Virus record (IMG/VR): IMGVR_UViG_2778261267_000001
Length of the DNA stretch: 40,147 nucleotides
Direction: 5' to 3' (one strand)
DNA from: a virus
Lineage: Duplodnaviria; Heunggongvirae; Uroviricota; Caudoviricetes
Made by a program: the position numbers and the translations under genes. Positions 16,597 through 35,750 of the stretch are shown here, in pieces. The notes beneath the pieces were generated by a model, which was not told where the DNA came from, ran no database searches, and saw only the letters and a program-made list of their open reading frames with translations. Every line of letters begins with the position of its first letter. The stretch's first letter is position 1.

Positions 16597-16803
16597 ATGT
16601 GCATGGGTAGCTCACCATCAGTGCCTGCAACACCAGAAGTTCAGGCAGCACCACAGGAGCAGGATGCCGCCGTTGTTGATGCCCGCGACGAAGAAACTCG
16701 TCGCCGTCGCGCTGCTGCTGGTCGTAGTTCTACGCTGCTTACCGGTTCTCAGGGCGACACATCAACCGCTAATACCAGCGGTAAAACGCTGCTTGGTCAG
16801 TAA
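16597..16803 (+). CDS. Hypothetical small Ser/Ala-rich protein (68 aa), first gene of the structural block
   Basis: ORF whose translation initiation region (CGGAGTCATTGA-N-ATG) is duplicated exactly in front of the portal gene. Confidence 0.5.
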   Translation: MCMGSSPSVPATPEVQAAPQEQDAAVVDARDEETRRRRAAAGRSSTLLTGSQGDTSTANTSGKTLLGQ

Positions 16804-16817
16804 CCGGAGTCATTGAA

Positions 16818-18497
16818 ATGGCGGAAACAACTAAAGAGCGATTGAACAAACAGTTCGCACAACTTGAAAGCGAGCGTCAGTCGTTCGAGCCGCACTGGCG
16901 CGAGTTGAGTGATTACATCAACCCGCGTGGTTCCCGCTTTCTGACTTCTGAGGTCAACCGTAACGATCGACGCAATACGCGCATTATTGATTCGACCGGG
17001 ACTATGGCGGCGCGTACTCTCGCCAGCGGCATGATGTCTGGTATCACAAGCCCCGCCCGTCCGTGGTTTCGCCTGGCTACGCCAGATCCTGAAATGATGG
17101 ATTATGGCCCTGTTAAGTTGTGGCTTGAGGCGGTGCAGAACCGCATGAACGATATGTTCAATAAGTCGAATCTCTACCAGTCTCTTCCGCAGTTATACGG
17201 AAGCCTCGGCACATACAGCACTGGTGCAATGGCGGTGCTGGAGGATGACGAGGACATCATTCGCACAATGCCATTCCCGATAGGCAGTTACTACCTGGCT
17301 AACTCACCTCGTGGCAGTGTGGACACCTGTTTTCGCAAGTTCTCTATGACTGTTCGTCAGCTTGTTCAGGAATTCGGACTAAATAACGTCAGCGAATCCG
17401 TAAAAAGCATGTGGGAAAGCGGCACCTACGAGAAGTGGATTGAAGTGATGCATTCGGTTTACCCGAACATTGACCGCGATACATCGAAGCTGGATAGCAA
17501 GAACAAGCCATTCAAATCGGTTTATTACGAGGTTGGTGGCGATAACGACAAGTTGTTGCGTGAGTCCGGATTCGATGAGTTTCCAATTATGGCTCCGCGC
17601 TGGGAAGTTAATGGCGAAGATGTTTATGGATCATCATGCCCGGGTATGCTGGCGCTTGGACCTGTTAAGGCATTGCAGCTTCTTCAGAAGCGCAAGTCGC
17701 AGTTGATTGATAAAGCCACCAATCCGCCGATGGTTGCTCCGACTTCCCTCAAGAATCAGCGCGCCTCCCTTCTTCCTGGCGACATCACGTATATCGATCA
17801 GATTACTGGTCAGGATGGTTTCAGGCCTGCTTATCTGGTTAACCCCAGTACAGCAGATTTGGTGGCAGACATTCAGGACACTCGTCAAATCATTAACAGC
17901 GCCTACTTTGTCGATCTGTTCATGATGTTGCAGAACATCAATACCCGCTCGATGCCTGTTGAAGCGGTGATCGAAATGAAAGAAGAAAAACTTCTGATGT
18001 TGGGGCCGGTTCTGGAGCGTCTGAACGACGAATGTCTTAATCCTCTCATTGACCGCGCTTTCTCGATGATGGTGCGTAAAAACATGCTGCCGCCACCGCC
18101 TGACGCGATGGAAGGTATGCCCCTGAAGGTCGAATACATTTCCGTCATGGCTCAGGCGCAGAAGTCTATCGGCCTGTCCAGTCTGGCATCCACGGTCAAC
18201 TTCATTGGTCAACTTGCGCAAGCGAAACCAGAAGCTCTCGACAAACTCAACGTTGATCAGGCGATCGATGCATTCGCTGATATGTCCGGAGTGTCTCCAA
18301 CCGTCATTGTTCCGCAGGAACAGGTTGAGCAGGCTCGCCAGCAACGGGCACAGCAACAACAGCAGCAACAAATGATGGCGATGGGGATGGCGGCGGCACA
18401 GGGTGCCAAGACGCTAAGCGAAGCTAAAACTTCGGATCCGAGTGTTTTGTCAGCTATGGCGAATGCAGTTAGTGGTCAGGGTGGGCAATCACAATGA
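16818..18497 (+). CDS. Portal / head-to-tail connector protein (podovirus T7 gp8-like)
   Basis: 559-aa ORF; size and the Q/M/A-rich C-terminal tail (QQRAQQQQQQQMMAMGMAAAQGA) recall the T7 gp8 C-terminus; position after the terminases. Confidence 0.8.
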   Translation: MAETTKERLNKQFAQLESERQSFEPHWRELSDYINPRGSRFLTSEVNRNDRRNTRIIDSTGTMAARTLASGMMSGITSPARPWFRLATPDPEMMDYGPVKLWLEAVQNRMNDMFNKSNLYQSLPQLYGSLGTYSTGAMAVLEDDEDIIRTMPFPIGSYYLANSPRGSVDTCFRKFSMTVRQLVQEFGLNNVSESVKSMWESGTYEKWIEVMHSVYPNIDRDTSKLDSKNKPFKSVYYEVGGDNDKLLRESGFDEFPIMAPRWEVNGEDVYGSSCPGMLALGPVKALQLLQKRKSQLIDKATNPPMVAPTSLKNQRASLLPGDITYIDQITGQDGFRPAYLVNPSTADLVADIQDTRQIINSAYFVDLFMMLQNINTRSMPVEAVIEMKEEKLLMLGPVLERLNDECLNPLIDRAFSMMVRKNMLPPPPDAMEGMPLKVEYISVMAQAQKSIGLSSLASTVNFIGQLAQAKPEALDKLNVDQAIDAFADMSGVSPTVIVPQEQVEQARQQRAQQQQQQQMMAMGMAAAQGAKTLSEAKTSDPSVLSAMANAVSGQGGQSQ

Positions 18498-18790
18498 CAG
18501 ATTACGAAGACGATCAACTGAAAGAAGAAAACGCCCGTAAGCAACGTGACATGGCACAGCGTGAAATTGATGACATTTGCTTTGTCATGAGCAGTGAACA
18601 AGGGCGTCGCGTTGTCTGGTCTGTGCTGGAGAAAGGCCGGGTGTTTTCCGCTATCTCTCCGATGGATGCTATGGCAATGGCATTTAATGAGGGGCAACGC
18701 AATCTGGCGCTGGAACTGTTTCAGCGCGTTATGGCGCATTGCCCTGAACAGTATTTGAAGATGGCCAAAGAGGCCAGTGAACAGGAGTGA
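18494..18790 (+). CDS. Hypothetical protein (98 aa) between portal and scaffold
   Basis: ORF with start/stop overlaps on both sides; acidic N-terminus. Confidence 0.5.
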   Translation: MTDYEDDQLKEENARKQRDMAQREIDDICFVMSSEQGRRVVWSVLEKGRVFSAISPMDAMAMAFNEGQRNLALELFQRVMAHCPEQYLKMAKEASEQE

Positions 18791-19488
18791 TCATGAATTT
18801 ATTTGAGCGTTTGCTGTATCGCCGTCTTTGTAATGAGCAACCAGTCGATGGTGGAGCAGCTCCGGCTGCGTCAGAACCGTCAGCGCCTGCAGGTGATAAC
18901 CCTGCTCCAGTTGGTGATCCATCACAACCGGAAGGTGATAAGCCACAACCTGTTGCTGATGGCGATAAACCTGCTGATGACAAAAAGCCTGAAAACGATA
19001 AGCAGGATGAAAAAAAGGGCGGCGATAAACCAGAGGGTGCGCCTGAGAAGTACGAGTTTCAGGCTGCCGAAGGCGTAGATCTGGATACAGAAGCGTTGAA
19101 GGAATTCGAGCCGGTGGCGCGAGAACTTAACCTGACCAACGAGCAAGCGCAAAAGCTGGTTGATGCTTATCCGAAGATTCTGGCAGGTGTTCAGCAGCGC
19201 CAGGCAGAAGCCTGGCAGAAAACAACCGAGCAGTGGGCTGCGGATGTAAAAGCTGACAAAGAAATCGGTGGCGACAAGTTGATTTCTAACCTTAGCGCCG
19301 CACAGCGTGCGCTTGACCAGTTCGGGACACCTGAACTCAAAGAATATCTGAACACCACCGGGCTGGGTAATCACCCTGATCTGGTCAAAACGTTCGTGAA
19401 AATCGGAAAGGCGATGTCTGAAGATGGCATGGTCACCGGTGGTAATGAAGGCCAGCGTAGTGCGGCCGAAGTGCTCTATGGCAAATAA
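18787..19488 (+). CDS. Scaffolding protein (putative)
   Basis: 233-aa acidic, Pro/Asp/Lys-rich low-complexity protein encoded by GGTGATAA-type nucleotide repeats, immediately upstream of the capsid gene. Confidence 0.6.
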   Translation: MIMNLFERLLYRRLCNEQPVDGGAAPAASEPSAPAGDNPAPVGDPSQPEGDKPQPVADGDKPADDKKPENDKQDEKKGGDKPEGAPEKYEFQAAEGVDLDTEALKEFEPVARELNLTNEQAQKLVDAYPKILAGVQQRQAEAWQKTTEQWAADVKADKEIGGDKLISNLSAAQRALDQFGTPELKEYLNTTGLGNHPDLVKTFVKIGKAMSEDGMVTGGNEGQRSAAEVLYGK

Positions 19489-19496
19489 GAGAGGAA

Positions 19497-20489
19497 ATGA
19501 CAATGGCTGTTAAAGGCTTAACTGCGCTAACGCTGGCTGACTGGGGTAAGCGCGTCGATCCAAACGGGAAAGTCGATAAGATTATCGAGCTTCTCGGTCA
19601 AACTAACCCGATCCTTCAGGATATGCCTTTTGTCGAAGGGAACCTTCCTACCGGACACCGAACCACCATTCGTTCTGGTTTACCTTCAGCTACCTGGCGT
19701 TTGCTGAACTATGGCGTACAGCCAAGCAAATCAACCACAGTGCAGGTAACCGATTCCGTTGGCATGCTGGAAACCTATGCTGAAGTCGATAAATCACTGG
19801 CTGATCTGAACGGCAATACCGCTGAATTCCGCCTGTCTGAAGACCGCGCATTTATTGAAGCGATGAATCAGCAGATGGCGCAGACGCTGTTTTATGGTGA
19901 TTCCAGCGTTAACCCTCAGCAGTTTATGGGACTGTCCTCCCGCTATTCCAGCCTGTCTGCGGGTAATGCTCAGAACATCATTGATGCTGGTGGCACGGGT
20001 ACAGATAACACCTCAATCTGGTTAGTGGTGTGGGGCGAAAACACCGTGCATGGCATCTTCCCGAAAGGGCAGAAGGCTGGCATCCAGATGGAAGATAAAG
20101 GCCAGGTGACACTGGAAGATGCTAATGGCGGCAAGTACGAAGGCTATCGCACCCATTACAAATGGGACAACGGACTTGCTCTGCGTGACTGGCGTTATGT
20201 TGTTCGCATTGCAAACATCGATGTCAGCAATCTTTCAGAACCTTCCTCTGCCGCAAATATTGCGAAGTTGATGGTTAAAGCACTGCATCGCATTCCAAAC
20301 CGTGGAATGGGTCGCCCGGTGTTCTACATGAACCGCACTGTAGGCCAGGCTCTTGATCTGCAATCTCTGGAGAAAACATCTCTGGCGATCAGCGTAAAAG
20401 AGACAGAAGGCGAGTGGTGGACTTCATTCCGTGGTGTACCAATCCGTGAAACTGATGCGCTTCTGGAAACAGAAGCCCGTGTGGTGTAA
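19497..20489 (+). CDS. Major capsid protein
   Basis: 330-aa ORF after the scaffold gene with a strong RBS (AGAGGAAATGA); assignment by position and size in the portal-scaffold-capsid order. Confidence 0.75.
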   Translation: MTMAVKGLTALTLADWGKRVDPNGKVDKIIELLGQTNPILQDMPFVEGNLPTGHRTTIRSGLPSATWRLLNYGVQPSKSTTVQVTDSVGMLETYAEVDKSLADLNGNTAEFRLSEDRAFIEAMNQQMAQTLFYGDSSVNPQQFMGLSSRYSSLSAGNAQNIIDAGGTGTDNTSIWLVVWGENTVHGIFPKGQKAGIQMEDKGQVTLEDANGGKYEGYRTHYKWDNGLALRDWRYVVRIANIDVSNLSEPSSAANIAKLMVKALHRIPNRGMGRPVFYMNRTVGQALDLQSLEKTSLAISVKETEGEWWTSFRGVPIRETDALLETEARVV

Positions 20490-20540
20490 CGCCTGTTATT
20501 AACCAGTGGGTCGTAACAGACCCACTAATGGAGAAAGAAG

Positions 20541-20978
20541 ATGATCACCGACAAACTGTTGATGTTCTCCGAAGCACAGGCGGTAACTGATACCGCGGCT
20601 TCTACTGACGTAATCGATCTAGGTCCAATTGATGGAAATCGTCGCGATATCGGCGTGGGTTACCCGCTTGAGTTTTGGGCGCTGGTTAACGAAGCCGCCA
20701 CGGCAAGTGGTGAGGCAACTGTAAACATCCAGTTGCAGACGAGTGAGAATAACAGCTCATGGTCCACTATTTATGATAGTGGCGCACTGGCAAAGGCTAC
20801 CCTGACAGCAGGTAAACGAGTTGTTTCTGCAAAGGTGCCTGCCGGTGTTCAGCGATATCTGCGTGTTAACTACTCCGTCGCAACTGGCCCACTAACGGCC
20901 GGCAAATTCACTGCGGGTATTAGTCTGGATGTTGATGCCAATACACCGTACCCGATCCGCTCAAAAGTAACTGGTTAA
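20541..20978 (+). CDS. Virion protein, possible capsid decoration/stapling protein
   Basis: 145-aa Thr/Ala/Val-rich beta-type protein directly after the capsid gene (GGAGAAAGAAGATG RBS); function by position only. Confidence 0.45.
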   Translation: MITDKLLMFSEAQAVTDTAASTDVIDLGPIDGNRRDIGVGYPLEFWALVNEAATASGEATVNIQLQTSENNSSWSTIYDSGALAKATLTAGKRVVSAKVPAGVQRYLRVNYSVATGPLTAGKFTAGISLDVDANTPYPIRSKVTG

Positions 20979-20988
20979 GGTGATTTCG

Positions 20989-21324
20989 ATGTCAGGTGAG
21001 AAACCAAGATACCGCGTTCTGCGCCTCTCTCATATCCATAACACACTGTGGCCGGAGGGGGCAGAAATCGAATACGAAGGTGAGCCTGGTAGCGCACTGG
21101 AACCTGTTAACGATGCAGCCAGACAGGCAAAAGCAAAGGTAGCAGGAAAGGTGACTATGGCAGCAACCAGCACCAAAATCATCAACGATGTGTCAGATGA
21201 TGGTGAACTGGATAAGCTCCGTGAAGAGTACGAATTGCTCTTTAACGAGAAGCCACACCATAACGCCAAAGCCGAAACGCTCCGCGAGAAGATCGCAGAT
21301 AAGCGTAAAGAACTGGGCGTGTAA
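20989..21324 (+). CDS. Hypothetical virion-block protein (111 aa)
   Basis: ORF with AAGGTG RBS before the ATG at 20989; followed by a terminator. Confidence 0.5.
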   Translation: MSGEKPRYRVLRLSHIHNTLWPEGAEIEYEGEPGSALEPVNDAARQAKAKVAGKVTMAATSTKIINDVSDDGELDKLREEYELLFNEKPHHNAKAETLREKIADKRKELGV

Positions 21325-21340
21325 GCCTCGCGAATCAGAC

Positions 21341-21362
21341 AAGGGGCTTCGGCCCCTTTATT
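21341..21362 (+). terminator. Intrinsic terminator/attenuator after the capsid gene group
   Basis: GGGGC-TTCG-GCCCC hairpin (21343-21356) followed by TTTATT. Confidence 0.7.
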
Positions 21363-21374
21363 GCAGGAGTGTAT

Positions 21375-21698
21375 ATGGAACTCGTAAACCTCAAAACCGG
21401 CACTGACAGCTACCAGGATGAGAGCGGAGAAACCAGAACTCGCGATGAATACCCGTGGGGGCTGTGCATCACTCTTAATAACGACACATTGAATAAGCTG
21501 AAGGCGCAACCTCAGGGCGTCGGAACAGAAGTGATGATAACTGCAAAGGCTGTTATTCGAGGCCTGTCTGCCAGAGAAACTGACGATGGTGTTAATCGCA
21601 GCGCCGATCTGCAGATCACTGATATGGCGATCGCTCCTGTTTCCGGGGATGTAGAAAAATCAGCGGCTGAAACTCTGTACGGTAACGGAGGTGAGTGA
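21375..21698 (+). CDS. Hypothetical virion-block protein (107 aa)
   Basis: ORF with AGGAG RBS 5 nt before the ATG at 21375. Confidence 0.5.
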   Translation: MELVNLKTGTDSYQDESGETRTRDEYPWGLCITLNNDTLNKLKAQPQGVGTEVMITAKAVIRGLSARETDDGVNRSADLQITDMAIAPVSGDVEKSAAETLYGNGGE

Positions 21699-22303
21699 TG
21701 GCCTCTGTAGTAGAGATCTGTAATCGTGCGCTGTCCAATATTGGCAATAGCCGCAGCATTAACAGCCTGACGGAAGCCAGCAAGGAAGCGGGGGAATGTT
21801 CGCTGCACTTTGAGGCCTGCCGTGATGCTGTGCTTTCTGATTTTGACTGGAACTTTGCTACCAAACGCGTGGCGCTTGCAGATACGAGCAATCCACCGCC
21901 TGACTGGGAATATGCGTACCAGTACCCGTCAGATTGTCTGCGCATTACTGAAATTATGCTTCCTGGTGTACGCAATCCAACAGCAGCAATGCGCGTTCAG
22001 TACGAAGTTGGTGCAGACACCGACGGAACAGGAAAGTTGATCTACACAGACCAGCCGCAGGCATGGCTCAAGTATGTCTCTCGCGTTTCAGATGTGAACA
22101 TGTTTGATGCCATTTTTATGGAGGCGTTGGCCTGGCGTCTTGCGGCAGCTATTAACATGGCGCTGACTGGGAATGCAGACCTCGGTACGTTTGCCCTCAA
22201 TATGTACAATCGCGTGATTCTTAGTGCTGGCTCGCATAGCCAGAATGAATCACAGGAACCACAGCCACCGGTTGATGAGTTTACCATTGCGAGGTTGTCC
22301 TGA
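21698..22303 (+). CDS. Tail tubular protein A-like (T7 gp11 position) - putative
   Basis: 201 aa with GGAGGTGAG RBS; call rests on size and on the gene order portal-scaffold-capsid-gp11-gp12 matching T7. Confidence 0.45.
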   Translation: MASVVEICNRALSNIGNSRSINSLTEASKEAGECSLHFEACRDAVLSDFDWNFATKRVALADTSNPPPDWEYAYQYPSDCLRITEIMLPGVRNPTAAMRVQYEVGADTDGTGKLIYTDQPQAWLKYVSRVSDVNMFDAIFMEALAWRLAAAINMALTGNADLGTFALNMYNRVILSAGSHSQNESQEPQPPVDEFTIARLS

Positions 22304-24774
22304 TGGCTATCAGTTGGATCCAGCCCAGCTTTGCCGGTGGTGAGATTGGACCGTCGTTGTACGGACGTATCGACATGGCGAAGTACCAGGTGGCATTGCG
22401 CAAGTGCGATAACTTTATCGTGCGGCAGTATGGCGGCGTTGAGAATCGACCTGGTACGCGTTTTGTCGGTGCCGCCAAATACCCAAATCGGAAATGCCGC
22501 CTGATCCCGTTCCAGTTCTCGACGGTTCAGACTTATGCTCTGGAGTTCGGACACCAGTACATGCGTGTTATCAAAGATGGTGCGTTGGTGCTGAACAGCA
22601 GTAATGTTATTTATGAAATTGCCACGCCATATACTGAAGCCGATCTGTTCCTAATTAAATTCACGCAAAGCGCAGACGTGCTTACGCTGGTTCATCCGGC
22701 ATACCCGCCGAAAGAGTTGCGACGTTATGCGCATGACAACTGGCAACTGGTTGATGTGGTAACGAAGAACGGGCCATTTGAAGATATCAATATTGACGAG
22801 TCAGTGACGGTTTATGCCAGCGCCAGCACCGGGACAATTACGTTAACGGCAAGCGCCTCTATTTTTGGCGCGGAGCAGGTAGGCAAATTGTTCTATCTGG
22901 AACAGCCAGCAGTGGATTCAGTACCGGTATGGGAAACCAGTAAGAGTACGTCGATTGGCGATATTCGCCGTGCAGACAGTAACTACTATCGCGCCGTTAC
23001 AGCAGGCAAAACAGGTACTTTGCGCCCTTCGCATACAGAAGGCACATCATGGGATGGCTGGGGCGGATCCGGTGATGATGATACTGGCATTGAGTGGGAA
23101 TATCTGCACAGTGGTTTTGGCATTGCCCGTATCACTGCTGCAAATGGCACTACTGCAACTGCTGAGGTGATTTCCTATATCCCTTCGCAGGTCGTTGGCG
23201 AGGATAATGCCAGCTATAAATGGGCTAAATATGCCTGGAACAGTGTTAATGGTTATCCTGGCACTGTTGTTTATTATCAACAACGTCTTTACTTCGCCGC
23301 ATCGACTGCGTTCCCTCAGACTATCTGGGCCAGCCGTACTGGGGATTATAAGGATTTTGGCAAAAGCAATCCTACGCAGGATGACGACAGAATTATCTAC
23401 ACCTATGCCGGACGTCAGGTTAATGAGATCCGCCACCTGATTGATGTTGGTTCGCTGGTGGCGCTGACTTCCGGAGGTGAGTACGTCATTACCGGCGACC
23501 AGAACAAAGTATTAACCCCATCATCATTTGCATTCAGTTCTCAGGGATCAAATGGCTCAAGCAACGTCCCACCAATTGCCGTGGCGAATATTGCTCTGTT
23601 CGTCCAGGAGAAAGGCAGTGTTGTCCGTGATCTGGCCTACTCATTCGATGTTGACGGCTATCAGGGGAACGACCTGACCATCCTTGCCAATCATCTTTTT
23701 CAGAAGCACAGCATTGTTGACTGGTGCTTCTCTATTGTCCCTTACTCCAGCGCCTTCTGCATTCGTGATGACGGTAAATTACTGGTGATGACCTATTTGC
23801 GTGATCAGCAGGTTTTTGCATGGGCACCACAATCCAGTACCGGAAAATATGAAAGCACATGCAGTATCAGCGAAGGCAATGAAGATGCGGTGTATTTCGT
23901 CGTTAACCGAACCGTTAACGGGCAAACAGTGAGATACATCGAGCGGCTGTCCAGCCGTTTATTTACCAGCGATGAAGACGCTTTCTTTGTTGATTCTGGC
24001 CTTAGCTATGATGGAAGAAATACGTCTGACAGAACGATGACAATCACTGGTGGTTCTGGCGAATGGGATTACCGCGCGGAATATACAATCAGTATTTCTG
24101 GCGGTGCGTACTTCACCAGTAGTGATGTCGGTGCGCAACTACAGTTCCCTTATACCGGAACTGATCCTGATACTGGCGATGAAGTGTCAAAAGAATTACG
24201 TTGCGACATTATTTCTGTAACCAGCAACACCGCTGTAGTGGTTCGTGCTAACAGGAACGTCCCGCCATCCCTCAGGAATGTGGCCACCACGAACTGGCAG
24301 ATGGCGCGCCGGGCATTTGGCGGCTTGTCTCATCTTGAAGGTCAGACCGTAAACATCCTCTCTGATGCGAACGTGGAACCACAGAAAGTAGTTTCCGGAG
24401 GTGCCGTCACGCTGGAATCACCGGGGGCTGTAGTGCACATCGGCCTGCCAATAACTGCTGAATTCGAAACACTGGATATCAACATTAACGGACAGGAAAC
24501 GCTGCTGGACAAAAAACAGGTGATCCCATCCGTTACTCTGGTTGTGAATGCCAGCCGCGGCATCTGGGCGACTACGCCCGGCGGTAAATGGTACGAATAT
24601 CCACAGCGTGAATTCGAGTTCTACGATGATCCTGTTGATGACGCTACCGGAAAAGTAGAAGTGAAACTGGACAGTAACTGGGGCAAAAACGGACGTGTAA
24701 GAATCCGTCAGCTTGACCCGTTGCCGCTGTCTGTTCTTGCCGTTATTCCTCGCCTTACTGTTGGGGGATTCTGA
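22303..24774 (+). CDS. Tail tubular protein B-like / nozzle (T7 gp12 position) - putative
   Basis: 823-aa ORF (T7 gp12 is about 800 aa) following the gp11-like gene with an overlapping start. Confidence 0.45.
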   Translation: MAISWIQPSFAGGEIGPSLYGRIDMAKYQVALRKCDNFIVRQYGGVENRPGTRFVGAAKYPNRKCRLIPFQFSTVQTYALEFGHQYMRVIKDGALVLNSSNVIYEIATPYTEADLFLIKFTQSADVLTLVHPAYPPKELRRYAHDNWQLVDVVTKNGPFEDINIDESVTVYASASTGTITLTASASIFGAEQVGKLFYLEQPAVDSVPVWETSKSTSIGDIRRADSNYYRAVTAGKTGTLRPSHTEGTSWDGWGGSGDDDTGIEWEYLHSGFGIARITAANGTTATAEVISYIPSQVVGEDNASYKWAKYAWNSVNGYPGTVVYYQQRLYFAASTAFPQTIWASRTGDYKDFGKSNPTQDDDRIIYTYAGRQVNEIRHLIDVGSLVALTSGGEYVITGDQNKVLTPSSFAFSSQGSNGSSNVPPIAVANIALFVQEKGSVVRDLAYSFDVDGYQGNDLTILANHLFQKHSIVDWCFSIVPYSSAFCIRDDGKLLVMTYLRDQQVFAWAPQSSTGKYESTCSISEGNEDAVYFVVNRTVNGQTVRYIERLSSRLFTSDEDAFFVDSGLSYDGRNTSDRTMTITGGSGEWDYRAEYTISISGGAYFTSSDVGAQLQFPYTGTDPDTGDEVSKELRCDIISVTSNTAVVVRANRNVPPSLRNVATTNWQMARRAFGGLSHLEGQTVNILSDANVEPQKVVSGGAVTLESPGAVVHIGLPITAEFETLDININGQETLLDKKQVIPSVTLVVNASRGIWATTPGGKWYEYPQREFEFYDDPVDDATGKVEVKLDSNWGKNGRVRIRQLDPLPLSVLAVIPRLTVGGF

Positions 24775-25238
24775 TGATCGATGTTCGAATTGTTCCCGCT
24801 ACCGAAGAGCATCTTCAGATGATTTTGCCGGATGTTCGTCAGGCTGATATTGACGAACTGTATGCGGTATCGCTGATGACTACCGAAGATGCGCTGCGTG
24901 TTGGTCTTCGCACTGCGACTATGGCCTGGTCAGGATTTGCGAACGGAGAACTGGTAACCATGTTTGGCGTATCTCCGGCGTCAATGATCGGTGGCAATGG
25001 TACGCCCTGGCTGGTAGGAACCAGCCGTATTGAAAAATATCAGAAGACATTTCTTCGCCACTGCCGCCCTGTATTGCAGCAGATGCTGGCAGTTTATCCA
25101 CGCCTGGAAAACTACGTCGACGAGCGAAACCATGTTGCCAAAGCATGGCTGCACTGGCTTGGATTCAGGCTTGAAGAAGCCGCGCCTTATGGTGCTCTTG
25201 GTCTTAATTTCCACAGATTTCACATGGAGAGAAAATAA
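24774..25238 (+). CDS. Hypothetical virion-assembly protein (T7 gp13 position)
   Basis: 154-aa ORF with overlapping start; function by position only. Confidence 0.4.
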   Translation: MIDVRIVPATEEHLQMILPDVRQADIDELYAVSLMTTEDALRVGLRTATMAWSGFANGELVTMFGVSPASMIGGNGTPWLVGTSRIEKYQKTFLRHCRPVLQQMLAVYPRLENYVDERNHVAKAWLHWLGFRLEEAAPYGALGLNFHRFHMERK

Positions 25239-25783
25239 TGTGCGATCCGGTTATTGCTGGTGGCGCAATGCTCGCCATGAGTGGCATTCAGGCATACACC
25301 CAGTACCAACAGGGAAAGTATGCCTCGAAGGTTGCAGAAGCGAACGCAGATATAGCCACAGCTCAGGCAAATGATGCAATAAACAGAGGTAACGCTGAAG
25401 CTGAGCAACGGCGCAGAGAGACCCGACAGCGGCTTGGTACACAGGCGGCGACAATGGGGGCGACCGGCGCCGATTTATCTACCGGTAACGCGCTGGATAT
25501 ATTTGGCGACACTGCCCAGTTTGGCGCTCTTGATTCGCTGACGACGGTGAATAACGCGCAACGCGAGGCTTACGGTTATCAGGTTCAGGCTGCCAACTAT
25601 AAAGCAGAAGCCAGTTCAGCCCGTAAACAGGGGAATGTGGGAGCAGCAACAACATTGCTCACTGCGCCTCTGAAGGCATACGGTGCGTACCAGATGTTTG
25701 GTGGGACGTGGAGTCCGTTTACTCAAAGCACCCCTGCGCCAATCGGGGCAGCAGCAGGAACCAGATTACCCGGAGGATTATAA
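25238..25783 (+). CDS. Internal virion protein (T7 gp14 position) - putative
   Basis: 181-aa Ala/Gln-rich protein with a hydrophobic N-terminus; position. Confidence 0.45.
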   Translation: MCDPVIAGGAMLAMSGIQAYTQYQQGKYASKVAEANADIATAQANDAINRGNAEAEQRRRETRQRLGTQAATMGATGADLSTGNALDIFGDTAQFGALDSLTTVNNAQREAYGYQVQAANYKAEASSARKQGNVGAATTLLTAPLKAYGAYQMFGGTWSPFTQSTPAPIGAAAGTRLPGGL

Positions 25784-28296: not shown

Positions 28297-30095
28297 GTTA
28301 CTTTGGCCTTAATCCAGTAAACCAGAATCAGCAGCTTGACGAAGCAGCATCAAATCCAGCTGGCTTTAACAGCGATGTTGGTTTTTTCGACAATGCTGTA
28401 GGAGCGGCATTGTCTGGTTTGTACTCCGGGCTGGTGGCAAAGCCAGATCAGTTGCTCTGGGCAGGGATGGATAAAATCGTATCCCCGATTGCTCAGTTTG
28501 TTAACGAAAACACCTCGCTCAATGACACTTCAATTTCATACATTGCCGAGCAGAGAAAACTAGCAGAGCAGCAGGTTAAGCGGCTGACGCCTGATGCCGC
28601 GACAACCGGAACCGCCGGGCAGGTTCTTTATGGGTTGTTCGATATGGGCGGGCAGGCTGTTGTCGGTACAACGCTCGGTGGTCCTGTCGGAGGTGCAGCG
28701 GCGGTAACTTCGCTACAGGGTTTTTCTGAGTTTGAACGGCTGACAGCACAGGGTGTTGATTTCAGGACGGCGCAGGAAGCGGGATTAGTGCAGGGCATTA
28801 CTGCTGGTGCCGGAACACTGATCCCTATGAGCCTCGGGTTACGTGCTGGTGGTGCGCTGGCGGAAGGTGTGGCGGCTCAGCTTGCGCGGACGGGTGAGAG
28901 TTCAGTGCGACGCGCCGCAGCAACAGCAGTACGTGCAACGCCAGATATTGCCTATGCCGCAGGTACAAATATTGCGTTCGGTATGGCACAGCGTGGGCTT
29001 ACTGCAAAAACGCTTCGTGATGGTGGCTATAGCGAAATGGCTAACCAGTATGATGTGTTGGATCGACAGGCAATTGCTATTGATGCTGTTCTTGGGGTGG
29101 CGTTTGGTGGTGTCGGCAGATTTATTAACTCTCGCGGCGAGTCTACAAACGCACCAAATTTTTCACCAGTTGATATCGATGCTGCACTGGCGGCGAATGC
29201 CGCTCATCATGCTGAAATTGATATTGCGCCCGGCGTGCCGATCAACGTGCTTTCGCGCAATTCTCACATTCAGGCTCTGCGAAAAGCTATGTCTGATGTT
29301 AGCCAGGGGAGACCTGTAGACGTTGCCAGCATTGTTGAGTCTGCATCTTTCAGTGAAATTCCTGGGCGCAAGAGTCTGCTGTCTCAGGCAGTTAATGAGG
29401 CTCTGTCATCTGTAGATGATGGAGTAACGGCGCGCGCTATAGAAAATCGGTTGCTTGAAGAACAGGCCGCGCAGCTTTTGCCGCGTGGCGATAGACAGGT
29501 TTACCAGTCTGAAATCGCTAATAGCCAACGAATTATTGAAAATCTCACTGAACAGCGGGCACAAATTCTTGCAGAAGAGCCAACCGGTAGCGGTAAAGCT
29601 TTGTCTCGTGCTAGATCAGATAAACAGGCCAGACTTCGCGATATTGATCAACGAATCCGGCAGGCACAAGAACGCCTGGAATTTTCCCGTAACGCGTTGG
29701 CACCGCACGAGCCTGGCGGTCAGTTTTTTGAAGCTCGAGCAGAACTGGCTCGGAGACAGCAGGCAGAAAGTGAACTTAATGCTCAGGCTGTTTCATTCTA
29801 TAAAACAGCAGAGGTCAGGACGCCAGACGAAGTAGCTCCTTTTGAGCCTGGTAAAATATTGCAACAGGCAGAACAAAAAATGATGGCGGATCAGGCGGGA
29901 GGTATTGATCTTCGCATAGCTGAAGACTCGCTGCTTGAATCACCTGACATGATAATCACCGTGCTGGATGATGATGGTAATCCACAATCGCGCAGCGCGC
30001 GCGAAGTACTGGATGAAGCGAACAGGGAAAGTGAGCAGGCAATACAGGATTCCAGCCTGTTTGATGTTGCTGTGGCGTGTTTCTTGAGAGGTTAA
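28293..30095 (+). CDS. Internal virion/ejection protein (600 aa)
   Basis: Large Ala/Gly-rich ORF with overlapping start, located in the ejection-protein block. Confidence 0.55.
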   Translation: MSYFGLNPVNQNQQLDEAASNPAGFNSDVGFFDNAVGAALSGLYSGLVAKPDQLLWAGMDKIVSPIAQFVNENTSLNDTSISYIAEQRKLAEQQVKRLTPDAATTGTAGQVLYGLFDMGGQAVVGTTLGGPVGGAAAVTSLQGFSEFERLTAQGVDFRTAQEAGLVQGITAGAGTLIPMSLGLRAGGALAEGVAAQLARTGESSVRRAAATAVRATPDIAYAAGTNIAFGMAQRGLTAKTLRDGGYSEMANQYDVLDRQAIAIDAVLGVAFGGVGRFINSRGESTNAPNFSPVDIDAALAANAAHHAEIDIAPGVPINVLSRNSHIQALRKAMSDVSQGRPVDVASIVESASFSEIPGRKSLLSQAVNEALSSVDDGVTARAIENRLLEEQAAQLLPRGDRQVYQSEIANSQRIIENLTEQRAQILAEEPTGSGKALSRARSDKQARLRDIDQRIRQAQERLEFSRNALAPHEPGGQFFEARAELARRQQAESELNAQAVSFYKTAEVRTPDEVAPFEPGKILQQAEQKMMADQAGGIDLRIAEDSLLESPDMIITVLDDDGNPQSRSAREVLDEANRESEQAIQDSSLFDVAVACFLRG

Positions 30096-30100
30096 ATTAA

Positions 30101-32575
30101 ATGAGACAGGAATGTATACAAGCGGTCCAGCAGGCGGCGCAGCGCACGTTAACGGCGCGAGAAATACAGAACATTGAAGACCGCATTTATCGAAATATGC
30201 GCTCCATTGCTCGTGATGACCCGATGTCGTGGCGACAACTTTCCGAATCAGAACGGTTGTATCGTGCAGCACAATTGGCATCTGAAGAATTACAGCGAGA
30301 AGCGGCATTAAAGAAACGTCGTGTGGCTCTCACTATAGCCGCACGTCAGAGATTGGATAAATTTATCAATAGCTATCAAGGGGCTGATGGGAAACTTGGC
30401 GCTCTTAACCGTACTATTGCTTTTAATGCAGACGGTAAATCGAATTTCCTCTCTGTTGAATCCAGAACAAAAGCCACTCGTGATTATGCATTGAGTCAAT
30501 TGCAGGAGGCATTTGAAGCAGTTGATCCTCGCTTTTTTGGCCTGTTTGAAGATGAAGCGGGCGTACGTGACCTGGTATATGAAATGCGGGGGCAAAATAC
30601 TGGCAATGCTAAAGCAAGAAAAGGTGCTAAAGCGTGGAGAGAAGTTACAGAGCTGCTGCGCCGCCGGTTTAATGATGCTGGTGGGGACATTGGCTATCTC
30701 GAAAACTGGGGGATCCCTCAACATCATTCTATGGAAAAGGTTGGTGCGGTATCAAAGGATAAGTGGGTTAGCGATGTTATAGGTAAGCTGGATCGCAAAT
30801 ATTATACCCGAGCCGATGGACAACTGATGAACGATGCCGAGTTGTCTGCATTTCTTGGAGAGGCTTATAACACGATCGCTACTGGTGGGCTGAATAAGCT
30901 TACTGATACCGGAATGCGAATTTCCGGCGCACGTGCTAACCGTGGTAATGCATCACGACAGATACATTTCAAAGATGCAGATTCCTATCTCCAATATCAA
31001 CAACTTTATGGCGATCGCTCTCTATGGGAAATCATGGTCGGTCACCTGGAAGGTATCAGTAAAGATATTGCTCTGGTGGAAACATATGGTCCAAACCCCG
31101 ATCATGTTTTCCGCTCCCTTCTTGATCAGGTTAAGGCAGAAACGGCAACAGCTAACCCGAGTAAAACCGGTAAAGTCGAGCGGCTGGCGAACAACACAGA
31201 GAATCTGTACAACTTTATTTCCGGAAAGACACAGCCTGTAGCGAATCCGCACATCGCGCGATGGTCTGACAATATCCGCAACTGGCTGGTTGCCAGCAGG
31301 CTCGGATCCGCGTTGCTGTCATCGTTCTCTGATCTTGGAACCATGTATCTGTCTGCGAAGGTTACCAACCTTCCAATGAACCAGTTATTCCGCAACCAGC
31401 TTGAAGCTATGGACCCAACGAACCGTACAGAACTTGCGCGGGCGCGCCGCGCTGGTCTGGCGATGGAATCTCTACTTGGCAGCGTTAACCGCTGGGCGAT
31501 GGATAATATGGGGCCGTCAGTGTCTCGTTGGGCGGCAACGGCGGTAATGCGTGCCAGTGGGCTTACAGCATGGTCAGATGCGCACAAGCGCGCCTATGGC
31601 GTAACCATGATGGGAAGCCTGGGAGAAGTAGTGTCACGGACACCAGACCTTCGTAGCCTTGATGACTCTGATTTTCGTATCCTGAAAAGCAAAGGGATTA
31701 CTGACACAGACTGGAGCGTATGGAAGTTGGCGCAACAGGAGGACTGGGGGAACGGTAATAATACGATGCTGACGCCGGAAAGCATTATGCGTATCCCTGA
31801 TTCAGCAGTTAAACATCTTGGTGAGCCTGAACGCGTGAAATTTGAGGCAATGCGTAAACTGCTCGGTGCCGTAACTGAAGAAGTTGATATGGCTGTTATT
31901 ACACCGGGAGCACGTGAGCAACTGATAACCGGTTCTGGTATTCAGCGTGGAACATGGAAAGGTGAATTAACGAGAAGTGTTTTCCTGTTTAAATCGTTCC
32001 CTATCTCGGTTGTTATGCGTCACTGGTCACGCGCTATGGGTATGCCGTCTGCTGGTGGGCGTGCGGCATATATTGCGACGTTTATTGCCAGTACGACCAT
32101 TCTTGGCGCTTTGTCGCAGCAACTTAACGACCTTGCGTCTGGTCGTAATCCTCGAGAGATGACAGGAGAAGATGCCGCAAAGTTCTGGCTTGGTGCTCTA
32201 CTGAAAGGTGGTGGTCTTGGCCTGTACGGTGACTTTTTATTGTCAGATCACACTAGGTACGGAAGCGGCGCGCTGGCGTCGATGCTTGGCCCGGTAGCTG
32301 GTCTGGTTGATGACGTAGTGAAGATTGCTCAGGGCATACCGTTAAATGCTGTGGAAGGGAAGAGTGAGCAGATTGGTGGTGATCTGGTGAAGCTGGGGAA
32401 AGGTTTGATGCCTGGTGCGAATCTCTGGTACTTGAAGGCGGCTCTCGATCACATGATCTTTAACCAGATGCAGGAGTATTTTTCACCAGGCTATTTGCGT
32501 AAAATGGAGCAACGTTCGAAGAAAGAGTTTAACCAGACATACTGGTGGCGACCTCAGGATGTCACTCCGCAATAA
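30101..32575 (+). CDS. Internal virion/ejection protein (T7 gp16-like position, 824 aa)
   Basis: Large ORF immediately upstream of the tailspike region; role by position only. Confidence 0.55.
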   Translation: MRQECIQAVQQAAQRTLTAREIQNIEDRIYRNMRSIARDDPMSWRQLSESERLYRAAQLASEELQREAALKKRRVALTIAARQRLDKFINSYQGADGKLGALNRTIAFNADGKSNFLSVESRTKATRDYALSQLQEAFEAVDPRFFGLFEDEAGVRDLVYEMRGQNTGNAKARKGAKAWREVTELLRRRFNDAGGDIGYLENWGIPQHHSMEKVGAVSKDKWVSDVIGKLDRKYYTRADGQLMNDAELSAFLGEAYNTIATGGLNKLTDTGMRISGARANRGNASRQIHFKDADSYLQYQQLYGDRSLWEIMVGHLEGISKDIALVETYGPNPDHVFRSLLDQVKAETATANPSKTGKVERLANNTENLYNFISGKTQPVANPHIARWSDNIRNWLVASRLGSALLSSFSDLGTMYLSAKVTNLPMNQLFRNQLEAMDPTNRTELARARRAGLAMESLLGSVNRWAMDNMGPSVSRWAATAVMRASGLTAWSDAHKRAYGVTMMGSLGEVVSRTPDLRSLDDSDFRILKSKGITDTDWSVWKLAQQEDWGNGNNTMLTPESIMRIPDSAVKHLGEPERVKFEAMRKLLGAVTEEVDMAVITPGAREQLITGSGIQRGTWKGELTRSVFLFKSFPISVVMRHWSRAMGMPSAGGRAAYIATFIASTTILGALSQQLNDLASGRNPREMTGEDAAKFWLGALLKGGGLGLYGDFLLSDHTRYGSGALASMLGPVAGLVDDVVKIAQGIPLNAVEGKSEQIGGDLVKLGKGLMPGANLWYLKAALDHMIFNQMQEYFSPGYLRKMEQRSKKEFNQTYWWRPQDVTPQ

Positions 32576-32584
32576 GGAAGTGTT

Positions 32585-32758: not shown

Positions 32759-32770
32759 ATAGGTGACTAC

Positions 32771-33067
32771 ATGCAAGCTATAGGATTCATTGTTTATATC
32801 GTCGTTGGTCTTTTTCAGTTGGCAGCAATTATGGCTGGGCTTGAATCATGGTGGGGATTGCACTGGATAATTGCAGCCCCCATCGCTTTCATCGTGAGCT
32901 ATATTCCATTTGTTGGAGCGATTGTTGGTATGGTTGGCGCTGTGGATGTATGGCGGTGGGAGTGGTGGCAGGCTGGCCTTCTCTTCTTTGGTGGGATCAT
33001 CTTTGCTATTGTCTGCGGTGGAATGTCATCATTTTTCGAATGGCTATCATTCAGAAAAGGAACGTGA
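32771..33067 (+). CDS. Small integral membrane protein (98 aa)
   Basis: ORF with AGGTG RBS; almost entirely hydrophobic with Trp-rich loops (three or more TM helices); followed by a terminator. Confidence 0.55.
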   Translation: MQAIGFIVYIVVGLFQLAAIMAGLESWWGLHWIIAAPIAFIVSYIPFVGAIVGMVGAVDVWRWEWWQAGLLFFGGIIFAIVCGGMSSFFEWLSFRKGT

Positions 33068-33075
33068 CATGTCAC

Positions 33076-33100
33076 AGGCCGCTTTCGCGGCCTTTTCTTT
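33076..33100 (+). terminator. Intrinsic terminator after the membrane-protein genes
   Basis: AGGCCGC-TTTC-GCGGCCT hairpin followed by TTTCTTT; preceded by a 12-bp palindrome GTGACATGTCAC (33064-33075). Confidence 0.65.
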
Positions 33101-33374: not shown

Positions 33375-33432
33375 TAACTGTATATTTATACAGTATCAAA
33401 TAATTTGTTTGCTATCCAGCACGTTTTGCGAA

Positions 33433-33498
33433 TTACCTGAAAGGTAATATCTATTCGTGTTTATGGGTTATCTATCCATATGTGGTTTTTAAGGTAAT
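33433..33498. promoter_or_regulatory. Tailspike / divergent-gene control region: TTACC-N5-GGTAA palindrome plus TATGTGGTT-N5-GGTAAT element
   Basis: TTACCTGAAAGGTAA at 33433-33447; TATGTGGTT at 33479-33487; GGTAAT at 33493-33498. Confidence 0.55.
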
Positions 33499-33551
33499 AG
33501 AATAACCGGATATGCGGCGCAACGGGTGCTGCGACTATCTGGAGATTTAAC

Positions 33552-35750
33552 ATGACGGTCTCAACCGAAGTTGACCACAACGAATACACAGGTAACGGCG
33601 TTACGACATCGTTTCCGTATACCTTCCGCATTTTCAAAAAATCCGACCTGGTTGTTCAGGTGGTTGACCTTGACGAAAATATCGCTGTGCTGGCTCTTGA
33701 TACTGATTATACAGTTACCGGGGCGGGAGGATATAACGGTGGTAATGTAATTCTGTCGAAGGCGCTGGCTAACGGTTATAAGATTTCTATATCACGAGAG
33801 CTACCGGTTACTCAGGAAACTGATCTGCGCAATCAGGGCAAGTTCTTTGCAGAAGTGCATGAGGATGCTTTTGATAAACTGACTATGCTGATTCAGCAGG
33901 CTATTAGTTTGTTGCGTCTTTCTCTGCGTAAACCGTCTTTTGTCGCAAATTACTATGATGCTCTGAACAATTACATTCGCAATCTTCGTGACCCGTCACG
34001 TCCACAGGATGCAGCAACAAAGAATTATGTTGATAGTCTTGCTGAAGAAAATTTAAGACGAACTTTGCGAACCCCTGAACGGATACCAGAACTCCCTGGA
34101 GTTGAACAGCGTAAGAATAAGATTATTGCAATGGATGATTCTGGAAATCCGATAATGGTTTTGCCTGAATCTGGTTCAGCATCAGATGTTCTGATTGAAC
34201 TAGCTAAGCCAAGCGGCCTTGGTATGATAGGGGCATCTTCTGGAAATAGTGCGCAGGCTGATATTGATTTATTGTCTTATGCTTACGGTATAAGATTAAG
34301 CACTTACCTTGATCGCGAAGACCCTTTGAGTGATGCTCTGATTGATTCACGATCAAAAAATCTACCATTAGTCATTGACTGCGATGCGACGTACAAAACA
34401 TTTCTGGTTTACAGTAACGACAGGATAATCGGTTGCGGAGATCATACTTTAACAAAAGCAGGGAATGACAAGTCATCAATACCATCAGCACAGCAACCTG
34501 AACGCCCACCTGGAACGATGACAGATTTCAGCGCGATTGATGCCGGTATTATTATCGTTCACCCTGAAAATGGAGCAGCAACTAATATCGAAATCACAGG
34601 GTTTAACATAAAAAGCAACTCTCACTCCGAATATGGAATATATCATCCTGTTTTATCATTTTCACGTATATCTAATATCAAAATTACTGGCTTTAAAAAG
34701 GGGATGAGAGCAAAAGACTCTTATGGAAACCAGTTTAGTAAAATATTCTCATTGTATTATTACTCTCCCCAAGATGTTTATAGCGACAACTATTGTTATG
34801 ATTTTTCTGATGGAGATTACGCCTCAGGAACAAGTAACACATTCAGTAATGTTACCTGTACTAACTATAAGAGACCATTCTTCTTTCAGAACCATAATTA
34901 CTTCACGATGACAAACTGTGGTGGTGAAGGGGTTAATACGCATGAGGCAGTAACAAACACAAACTATCCTCTTGTTTTTGAGTTTGTAAATGTTGTAAGT
35001 GCTGTATTGAACACTCCTTATACTGAAAATCTTTATGGAGGATTTTTAAGAGCAACATCAACGCCTGAAGGAACTGCGCAAGGTCCATCAACTATAGTTA
35101 TAAATGGACCGCAGGCAATTACAGGCATATACGGAACAGACACTGAAGTTGGAGCAAAGTTATTTGATGTAAGCGGCTCAGTAAACGTAGCTGTTAATGG
35201 TGGGGTGTTGACAGGTGCATCATTTGGCAAGTTCCTTAAGTTTGGCGGGGCTTCAGACGAAGCATGTCTGCTGATAACGGGCATGGATATGAAGTATGTG
35301 CTGTCTCAAATACGTAGTGATTTTGGATATAACGGAATTAATTCAGTTAAAGGACTTAGGCCAATTCAAATTTTGAGGAATGGAATTGGCTCTGCAACTG
35401 GTAGCGGGATTGTTAACTGGAAAAGTGCATCTATAGATGATTATTTTATGAATGGCGGTAATTATACAAAAACAGCGCTTGGTGGTTTTTATAAGATAGA
35501 AATTACGCTGCCAATAGGATCATCTGCATCAGGTGGAGAAGTTCAACTCTTGCTGTCAGATACGGATACAGACAATGGAGTTATAATTTCACAATGCTAT
35601 GTTCCTCCAGTGTCAAGCGGTAAGTTTACTGCCTCCATAAGCTACGAAGGTAGATTGCCTGGAGGAAAGTACCTTTATGTAAAGGCTAATAATGCCAGCT
35701 GGTCATCTGCATACGACATTGATTCAGTGTTTAATGTAATCCTGAAGTAA
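33552..35750 (+). CDS. Tailspike / receptor-binding protein with a low-GC C-terminal (likely O-antigen-directed) domain
   Basis: 732-aa ORF with strong RBS. N-terminal ~170 aa at normal GC, remainder markedly AT-rich; C-terminal region rich in N/G/S/T, consistent with a beta-helix receptor-binding fold. Confidence 0.8.
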   Translation: MTVSTEVDHNEYTGNGVTTSFPYTFRIFKKSDLVVQVVDLDENIAVLALDTDYTVTGAGGYNGGNVILSKALANGYKISISRELPVTQETDLRNQGKFFAEVHEDAFDKLTMLIQQAISLLRLSLRKPSFVANYYDALNNYIRNLRDPSRPQDAATKNYVDSLAEENLRRTLRTPERIPELPGVEQRKNKIIAMDDSGNPIMVLPESGSASDVLIELAKPSGLGMIGASSGNSAQADIDLLSYAYGIRLSTYLDREDPLSDALIDSRSKNLPLVIDCDATYKTFLVYSNDRIIGCGDHTLTKAGNDKSSIPSAQQPERPPGTMTDFSAIDAGIIIVHPENGAATNIEITGFNIKSNSHSEYGIYHPVLSFSRISNIKITGFKKGMRAKDSYGNQFSKIFSLYYYSPQDVYSDNYCYDFSDGDYASGTSNTFSNVTCTNYKRPFFFQNHNYFTMTNCGGEGVNTHEAVTNTNYPLVFEFVNVVSAVLNTPYTENLYGGFLRATSTPEGTAQGPSTIVINGPQAITGIYGTDTEVGAKLFDVSGSVNVAVNGGVLTGASFGKFLKFGGASDEACLLITGMDMKYVLSQIRSDFGYNGINSVKGLRPIQILRNGIGSATGSGIVNWKSASIDDYFMNGGNYTKTALGGFYKIEITLPIGSSASGGEVQLLLSDTDTDNGVIISQCYVPPVSSGKFTASISYEGRLPGGKYLYVKANNASWSSAYDIDSVFNVILK

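Follow-up and report, generated by a model that had tools for sequence, protein, structure and literature searches.

The late region of the window, by which we mean the whole 40,147-nucleotide stretch analysed, is very probably a phiV10-like late (virion) operon in which the two ORFs at the T7 gene 16 position belong to a normal, ancient four-component podovirus ejectosome, with no split specific to this genome. We refer to the three large internal proteins as A (837 aa), B (600 aa) and C (824 aa). The first-pass annotation had proposed that the gp16-like function was divided between the 600- and 824-aa products. Our results argue against this: C alone appears to correspond to the gp16 body, the hydrolase domain is found in A, and B showed no detectable similarity to T7 gp15 or gp16.

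Identity and spread of the prophage

The window is a phiV10-like (Uetakevirus) prophage, of the epsilon15/phiV10 type of temperate podovirus. DNA identity was 98.2% to phiV10 over 97% of the region, 98.3% to phiv142-3 over 100% of the region, and 99.7% to an E. coli prophage. Of 5,426 complete E. coli genomes, 305 have a chromosomal prophage that includes at least 80% of the region. The Uetakevirus gene order was matched throughout: terminase, portal, capsid with cement and staple, adaptor, nozzle, five internal proteins and tailspike, and downstream an O-antigen-modifying gene (35778-36836, an Acyl_transf_3 domain match) and lysis genes (holins and a GH19 endolysin). The DNA identity and gene order together bear out the earlier suggestion of an epsilon15-like podovirus.

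Gene order is identical in phiV10 (NC_007804, genes p06-p25) and related E. coli prophages. From portal to C, every structural protein of phiV10 has 96-100% amino-acid identity to that of the window, except that the phiV10 tailspike is only 36% identical. The two also differ after C, where the window has a 98-aa membrane protein and phiV10 has a small membrane protein and a Bro-N antirepressor. Salmonella phage epsilon15 (gp4-gp20) again has the same order, its gp15, gp16 and gp17 being A, B and C. Identity to the window is 77-88% for its adaptor, nozzle and gp14-like protein, but falls to 32% for B, 28% for C and 35-43% for the capsid block. These low identities show that the B/C and capsid modules have been exchanged. 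Pseudomonas phage Shamal (33% for B, 45% for C) and Yersinia phage YeP4 (42% for C) are closer than epsilon15 in these proteins. Nearly all sequences returned by homologue searches, whether with B or a mixed C profile, were enterobacterial, 86-100% identical and useless for alignment depth, and a search for related loci on viral contigs returned close relatives only.

The lifestyle genes expected of a Uetakevirus, integrase and repressor, are present. The integrase (1-1251) was identified by its integrase domains; an HTH repressor (5100-5684, minus strand) is divergent from a Cro-like 76-aa ORF (5839-6069). Next are an initiator with HTH_36 and DnaT domains (6436-7251) and a lambda P family protein (7233-8033; PF06992, E 1.5e-56). 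The earlier description of a temperate genome with a CI/Cro switch and O/P replication thus stands for integrase, repressor, Cro-like ORF and P family protein, but not for O, since no match to the lambda O family was found for the initiator.

Head genes, adaptor, nozzle and tailspike

The late genes described below are all on the plus strand. The portal protein (16818-18497, 559 aa) is of T7 gp8 type (Pfam PF12236 Head-tail_con, E 1.6e-187), with 99% identity to phiV10 p07 and 80% to epsilon15 gp4. It is followed by a small Bbp19-like protein (18494-18790, 98 aa; Pfam PF25181, E 6.8e-17) and, in the scaffold position, by a 231-aa protein (18793-19488; phrog_458 'protease', E 5e-111). PHROGs and RefSeq label the latter a protease or peptidase. 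No peptidase domain was found in it, nor any Pfam or PDB sequence match, and its sole NCBIfam match was far under the cut-off for that family. With an acidic N-terminus rich in P, A, D and K, followed by a helical half, it looks like a candidate scaffold. The major capsid protein (19503-20489, 328 aa) is of the epsilon15 gp7 family (Pfam PF20911, E 2e-149). A capsid decoration block (20541-21698) comprises a Bbp16-type cement protein (145 aa), a 111-aa protein and a gp10-type staple (107 aa); its Pfam matches were PF21190 (E 3e-48) and PF21628 (E 1e-51), and RefSeq names are available.

At the T7 gp11 position is the head-to-tail adaptor (21698-22303, 201 aa). Searched with its family profile, PDB gave matches to 8ck1_E 'Connector Protein' (E 4.6e-40) and to 9efk_T (12 chains); hhalign comparison with T7 gp11 itself was weak (E 0.089). 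The tail nozzle (22303-24774, 823 aa) matches PDB 8ck1_A 'Tail Nozzle' (E 7.6e-217), and its alignment to T7 gp12 (hhalign probability 85%, E 6.7e-6, 323 columns) identifies it as a gp12 homologue. The tailspike (33552-35750, 732 aa) falls in PHROG tail spike/fibre families, and its N-terminal ~240 aa are common to many tail fibre families. It lies outside the ejection cassette, as the last item of the T7-like order.

That order, portal through tail fibre, had been likened to T7 genes 8-17, and we agree: the block is collinear with them and partly homologous. The ORF sizes and order were as first described, apart from the omission there of the three capsid-decoration genes (145, 111 and 107 aa). 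The sizes follow those of T7 gp8 to gp17, which are 536, 307, 345, 196, 794, 138, 196, 747, 1318 and 553 aa long. Chance does not explain the match in size, because homology was found for portal, nozzle, gp14 and gp16. None of the structural proteins proved to be a siphovirus or myovirus tail component, the identity that would have spoken against a T7-like block.

The ejection cassette

The cassette opens with a 154-aa internal virion protein (24774-25238; phrog_308 'internal virion protein') at the T7 gp13 position, whose similarity to gp13 is only suggestive (hhalign E 1.7e-3, probability 15%). Next is a 181-aa ejection protein of the gp14 family (25238-25783; Pfam PF24072 T7_gp14, 31.2 bits, where the cut-off is 27), which like T7 gp14 has a hydrophobic segment at its N-terminus. 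None of the cassette proteins received a useful name from NCBIfam. Most of the gene junctions from the 201/823-aa pair to the 837/600-aa pair overlap by 1 or 4 nt (ATGA or TAATG), which fits a translationally coupled operon; the B and C genes are 5 nt apart.

A (25783-28296) is an internal virion protein at the T7 gp15 position, of 862 aa when read from an upstream GTG, and it matches PHROG 992, 1044, 873 and 7182. Its residues 249-398 are a peptidoglycan hydrolase domain, matching the N-terminal residues 3-146 of PDB 9vvp_L Gp29 (1295 aa; E 3.7e-38) and the 7q47 endolysin (E 2.6e-17). Outside that domain, profile search found no PDB sequence match. We found no mention of PDB 8ck1 or 9vvp in the literature. 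A single-sequence hhalign comparison had suggested homology of A to T7 gp15 (E 0.006); we discounted that match as chance, for it vanished when the A family profile was set against the gp15 family profile (E 0.34, no detectable similarity). The correspondence of A to gp15 is one of position and size. The A-type hydrolase domain was seen in B in phages KL4 and Acinetobacter 4316 and in cluster representatives P0262 and P0264.

C (30101-32575) is identified as the homologue of the body of the gp16-class 'internal virion protein D'. A Foldseek search of BFVD with its AlphaFold model gave probability 1.00 to Autographiviridae internal virion/core proteins of 1003-1490 aa; many of its structural matches are named as 'large polyvalent protein associated domain' proteins. 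By hhalign, C 308-648 aligned to residues 796-1127 of the T7 gp16 family (E 8.4e-5, probability 60%), a score above those of all 81 control profiles, and the alignment extended to C 124-820 on gp16 596-1290, with 297-598 collinear columns. The motifs DIA[LI]xxxxG and QFKSF[PT]I are common to both proteins, and beyond the aligned block each has hydrophobic segments in corresponding places (C 653-673 and 722-746; T7 gp16 1132-1157 and 1188-1209). The sequence link is remote, and the stronger support compares predicted structures with predicted structures; on these grounds C alone is the counterpart of the conserved gp16 body (T7 gp16 ~596-1290). C lacks a lytic transglycosylase domain at its N-terminus, and neither profile search of sequences nor Foldseek found a PDB relative for it.

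B (28293-30095) is a member of a conserved, all-helical ejection-protein family with 1,343 representative clusters at E<=1e-3. A Gly/Ala-rich hydrophobic N-terminal half is followed by a coiled-coil middle and a conserved C-terminal motif; conservation is concentrated in core residues 1-375 and in A593 and C596 at the C-terminus. Its AlphaFold model is all helical (pLDDT 80), and no PDB relative was found by profile search of sequences or by Foldseek fold search. Sequence comparison places B in a large family of its own, apparently no part of gp16. Pfam searches found no domain in the window's B or C, and no effector domain was recognisable in either; longer B relatives bear ART-PolyVal and ddrB-ParB domains or the A-type hydrolase. 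Effector domains of this kind are typical of polyvalent proteins, which have been proposed to enter the cell with the DNA (Iyer et al. 2017, PMC5512222). Those proteins differ from the window's B and C in having at least two disparate effector domains per polypeptide; only the longer relatives bear such domains.

Comparison with T7 gives a mixed picture. The T7 ejectosome (gp14, gp15, gp16) is encoded in the same place, between nozzle and tail fibre; a gp14 family member is common to both, and C shares a fold and collinear motifs with the gp16 body. T7 has three core proteins, whereas the window has four (181, 837, 600 and 824 aa) between the gp13 position and the tail fibre. The lytic domain is N-terminal on T7 gp16 but internal to A in the window. 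No homologue of T7 gp15 was detected in the window, and no T7 counterpart of B.

An ancient layout, and alternatives to it

We examined 11 distant podophages: epsilon15, Shamal, YeP4, RpY1, KL4, Ab31, Acinetobacter 4316, the pelagiphage Skadi-7, VP2, Liberibacter SC1 and 'DVV SI2'. All 11 had the series gp14-like protein, A, B and C, mostly followed by a tail fibre or spike, with A of ~700-980 aa, B of ~390-860 aa and C of ~780-1070 aa. Because it is common to such distant phages, the layout of three large ORFs is ancient and not the product of a recent split.

A wider reading, speculative and on balance rather doubtful, would make the B family a general-purpose 'chassis' that carries cargo into the cell by way of the ejection channel of podoviruses, with B and C arising by fission of a gp16-like protein, or gp16 by fusion of B and C. 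The N-terminal ~375 and C-terminal ~40 residues are conserved and would be the ends around a swappable middle. What occupies the middle varies: nothing in the window, a peptidoglycan hydrolase in some phages, and ADP-ribosyltransferase/ParB-like effectors in others.

We consider it unlikely that a gp16-like ancestor, composed of lytic domain, hydrophobic N-region and body, truly underwent fission, giving B from its N-terminal third and C from its body, with the lytic domain moved to A. The position and summed size are as this would predict (B and C add up to 1,424 aa, and gp16 has 1,318 aa), and C covers T7 gp16 only from ~596 onward. Gly/Ala-rich hydrophobic clusters are found in both B (31-280) and T7 gp16 (319-413), many B/C junctions of relatives overlap by ATGA, and the best alternative hhalign path places B 4-378 on gp16 192-637, where it would be expected. 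That path, however, had an E of 0.44, no better than unrelated pairs. B is moreover a large independent family with a conserved C-terminus of its own, and not one B-C fusion was found among 150 B-family representative clusters or 240 members of the C family. In Xanthomonas phage PhiXacm4-11 (PZ048659), gp35, a 2,300-aa candidate for such a fusion, lies behind a gp14-like protein and a 730-aa transglycosylase protein. The change may also have been a fusion or a loss in the T7 lineage.

It is quite improbable that B is neither a virion nor an ejected protein, serving instead as an assembly chaperone for incorporation of C. The idea comes from epsilon15, where a 2013 study by Guichard et al. reportedly placed gp15 and gp17 in the tail tube, is said to have found no gp16 in virions, and reportedly showed that attachment of gp17 needs both gp15 and gp16. 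Also counted in its favour, PMC12391199 cites Guichard et al. as assigning 'gp17/16' jointly. Against it, the effector and hydrolase domains of B relatives only make sense if the protein exits the virion, and records of related phages annotate B as a structural or internal virion protein. B and C as siphovirus or myovirus tail or tape-measure parts can be dismissed, all their homologues being in podovirus cassettes between nozzle and tail fibre.

Proposed ejection mechanism

Under the preferred reading, a four-component ejectosome of ancient layout, the head genes are followed by a dodecameric adaptor (201 aa) and a hexameric nozzle (823 aa), and then by a coupled cassette of internal ejection proteins: the 154-aa protein, the gp14-family protein, A, B and C. 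When epsilon15 infects a cell, its ordered core exits the capsid to form a tube (PMC5850374, PMC8954989, PMC12391199). By analogy with T7 and with epsilon15 cryo-ET, the ejection proteins would be stored in the virion as a core over the portal, leave by way of the nozzle on infection and be rebuilt as an envelope-spanning channel. The gp14-like protein may act at the outer membrane, and A would use its internal hydrolase domain to cleave peptidoglycan. C, with its C-terminal hydrophobic segments, may form the end of the channel at the inner membrane or in the cytoplasm. B would be the fourth conserved ejection protein, its N-terminal module perhaps serving packaging and ejection; in other phages B bears cargo domains (hydrolase, ADP-ribosyltransferase, ParB-like nuclease), and the window's B has none. 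For B and C we infer the places in the channel, because neither has a relative among solved structures.

Significance

The block is the ordinary structural one of a well-known type of E. coli prophage. Annotated genomes with this phage type, this gene order and the gp15/gp16/gp17 trio have been public since about 2005-2007, and epsilon15 serves as a model phage for structural work. Three points may add to this. Recognition of epsilon15-type gp17 (C) as a gp16-class protein could put right published assignments that disagree; the domain for peptidoglycan hydrolysis shifts among A, B and gp16-type proteins; and the 600-aa (B) family is widespread and able to bear effector cargo. Together these could steer the reading of cryo-EM core densities in epsilon15-like phages. 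If the B family does serve as a chassis for cargo, with B, C and gp16 related by fission or fusion, polyvalent anti-defence proteins would be linked to the central apparatus of ejection.

Identity of the prophage and its late operon

Megablast of the region matched phiv142-3 at 98.3% identity (100% coverage), phiV10 at 98.2% (97% coverage) and epsilon15 at 75% (43% coverage). It is 99.7% identical to an E. coli chromosomal prophage, and at least 80% of it is present in 305 of 5,426 complete E. coli genomes. Gene by gene, the proteins are 96-100% identical to those of phiV10, with the tailspike the exception at 36%. The early region encodes an integrase, MT-A70 methylase, RecT, PDDEXK nuclease, HTH repressor, a divergent Cro-like ORF, an HTH_36/DnaT initiator and a lambda P family protein. 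Together these indicate that the window is a phiV10-like Uetakevirus prophage, much as the first-pass annotation had guessed; its structural genes are essentially those of phiV10.

ORF calls gave an uninterrupted late operon on the + strand (16597-35750). It runs from a 68-aa ORF through the portal (559 aa), a 98-aa protein, a 231-aa protein (18793-19488), the major capsid protein (328 aa), three capsid-decoration genes (145, 111 and 107 aa), and proteins of 201, 823, 154 and 181 aa. There follow protein A (837 aa; 25783-28296) at the T7 gp15 position, proteins B (600 aa; 28293-30095) and C (824 aa; 30101-32575) together at the gp16 position, a 98-aa membrane protein (32771-33067) and finally the tailspike (732 aa). 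Overlaps of 1 or 4 nt join most of the genes from the 201-aa gene to B, and 5 nt separate B from C. The ORF sizes and order reported earlier were correct apart from omission of the three small capsid genes. The terminase/gp49-like genes are separated from the portal operon by a tRNA-Arg gene (anticodon TCT; 16094-16170, - strand). The 98-aa protein after C has three to four hydrophobic segments; at this point the phiV10 genome encodes a membrane protein of 46 aa and a Bro-N antirepressor.

Relative to epsilon15 the late block is mosaic. Identity to the epsilon15 proteins is 77-88% for the portal, adaptor, nozzle and gp14-like protein, but just 35-43% for the capsid/cement/staple block (within 19503-21698) and just 28-32% for B and C (28293-32575). 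Both B and C of Pseudomonas phage Shamal, and C of Yersinia phage YeP4, are nearer to those of the window than are their epsilon15 counterparts. Further downstream, 33552-36836 has low GC (0.36-0.41). Wide sharing of its tailspike, 36% identical to that of phiV10, is limited to the N-terminal ~240 aa, and the next gene, on the reverse strand, encodes an Acyl_transf_3 protein (352 aa). The stretch as a whole looks like an exchanged module for host range and O-antigen modification. Two last stretches, 37053-38859 and 39077-40147, hold the lysis cassette, made up of two holin-family genes, a GH19-type endolysin and a DUF2514 protein, and, past it, two reverse-strand genes for a DUF5384 protein and a glycine-zipper/TraT-like lipoprotein, the latter incomplete and crossing the window end.

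Head and tail proteins

The portal belongs to the T7 gp8 family (PF12236, E 1.6e-187) and the capsid protein to the epsilon15 gp7 family. The 823-aa protein matches the 'Tail Nozzle' of PDB 8ck1 (chain A, E 7.6e-217), and its family profile matches T7 gp12 over 323 columns (probability 85%, E 6.7e-6). The 201-aa protein is identified as the adaptor from matches of its family to the 'Connector Protein' of 8ck1 (chain E, E 4.6e-40) and to a protein present as 12 chains in 9efk; T7 gp11 is matched only weakly (E 0.089). The 181-aa protein scores above the Pfam threshold for T7_gp14, and the match of the 154-aa protein to T7 gp13 (E 1.7e-3) is only suggestive. None of the proteins of the block resembles siphovirus or myovirus tail components, the finding that would have counted against a T7-ordered block. 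Three solved structures match the cassette: 8ck1, a close relative of the window's nozzle and adaptor, 9efk, a more distant adaptor-nozzle pair, and 9vvp. A literature search for 8ck1 and 9vvp found no citing paper within the library covered.

At the scaffold position, the 231-aa protein is named a protease or peptidase in PHROGs and RefSeq. Searches gave it neither a peptidase domain nor any match in the PDB. An acidic N-terminal stretch of ~90 aa, rich in Pro, Ala, Asp and Lys, precedes a helical half. Its naming as a protease may be an annotation error carried over from record to record.

C as the gp16 counterpart

In hhalign comparisons of the C family with T7 gp16, broader profiles gave better E-values: 2.6e-3 when T7 was represented by one sequence, 3.5e-4 once eight sequences of its family were used, and 8.4e-5 (probability 60%) when the C profile held 64 sequences. 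The alignment pairs C 308-648 with gp16 796-1127 over 297 collinear columns; greedier settings extend it to C 124-820 and gp16 596-1290. In a control run the observed score, 47.4, was above that of the reversed profile (20.5) and those of all 40 column-shuffled (maximum 31.7) and 40 block-shuffled (maximum 39.6) profiles. Family-invariant residues fall in register (DIA[LI]xxxxG and QFKSF[PT]I...R), and past the aligned block hydrophobic segments lie at corresponding offsets in both proteins. Modelled with AlphaFold (pLDDT 73, pTM 0.75), C had no match in PDB. Predicted viral structures gave matches, at probability 1.00, to Autographiviridae proteins named 'internal virion protein D' or 'internal core protein', including those of Xylella phage Cota (1490 aa, E 1.3e-8, TM 0.50), Ralstonia RSB3 (1315 aa), Providencia PSTRCR_120 (1292 aa), LKA1, phiKT and PAO1_Ab05; many 'large polyvalent protein associated domain' proteins matched as well. 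Profile and model both indicate that C alone is the gp16 homologue.

B as a separate family

The gp16-like function had been thought split between the 600- and 824-aa ORFs. True fission of gp16 into B and C is compatible with their positions and sizes and with the N-terminal hydrophobic cluster of B, but has no statistical support: similarity of B to T7 gp15 or gp16 is at noise level (E 0.08-0.45). B-C fusions were absent from 150 B representatives (15 of them 1,000-1,740 aa) and from 240 C-family proteins. B has no PDB relative by sequence or fold; its model is all helical (pLDDT 80). With 1,343 representative clusters at E<=1e-3, conserved in the N-terminal ~375 residues and a C-terminal motif, B is a family of its own, whose member here may alternatively be an assembly chaperone. 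Three of six long relatives tested (P0189, P0202 and P0253; 1,331-1,740 aa) carry ART-PolyVal, and P0253 also carries ddrB-ParB; both domains are typical of polyvalent proteins believed to enter the host along with the phage DNA (PMC5512222).

A mobile lytic domain

In A, residues 249-398 match both the N-terminal domain of 'Gp29' (PDB 9vvp_L, 1295 aa, four chains; E 3.7e-38) and endolysin 7q47. The enzymatic hallmark of gp16, its lytic domain, thus resides in A, not C. In Burkholderia phage KL4, Acinetobacter phage 4316 and two B-family representatives (P0262 and P0264) it is instead in B. Since its location in A or B varies by phage, the domain moves among the proteins of the cassette.

Conservation of the layout and a model for ejection

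Two ORFs at the gp16 position are not special to the window. The series of gp14-like protein, A (~680-980 aa), B (~390-860 aa) and C (~780-1070 aa), followed in most by a tail fibre or spike, and with every component tied to the window's proteins by BLASTP, is present in epsilon15, Shamal, Pseudomonas phage Ab31, YeP4, Ralstonia phage RpY1, KL4, Acinetobacter phage 4316, pelagiphage Skadi-7, Vibrio phage VP2, Liberibacter phage SC1 and Dunaliella viridis virus SI2. The last (NC_023841), whose host is given as a green alga, has a podophage cassette of 841/792/830 aa with holin, Erf and exonuclease VIII genes, and looks like a bacteriophage.

Annotations of epsilon15 and phiV10 have long included the gp15/gp16/gp17 trio, which in epsilon15 has also been the subject of genetic work; the two-ORF observation is real but ordinary. 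In the epsilon15 record gp11, gp12 and gp13 are 201, 825 and 154 aa, at odds with the ejection proteins of 229, 499 and 708 aa given under those names in Table 1 of the review PMC8954989. The latter sizes look like those of a P22-like phage, and the position of 'Epsilon15' in the trees of that paper is therefore doubtful.

The two-ORF layout is a conserved, ancient arrangement. Building on these homologies and domain contents, and drawing roles from T7 and epsilon15 imaging, we propose that the five internal proteins (154-aa, gp14-like, A, B and C) would be packaged as a core above the portal, exit at infection through the adaptor-nozzle channel and rebuild a conduit across the envelope. The gp14-like protein would act at the outer membrane and A would cleave the peptidoglycan; C, with its gp16-class body and C-terminal hydrophobic segments, would be placed at the inner membrane. 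The fourth ejected component would be B, from a family that may ferry cargo in other phages.
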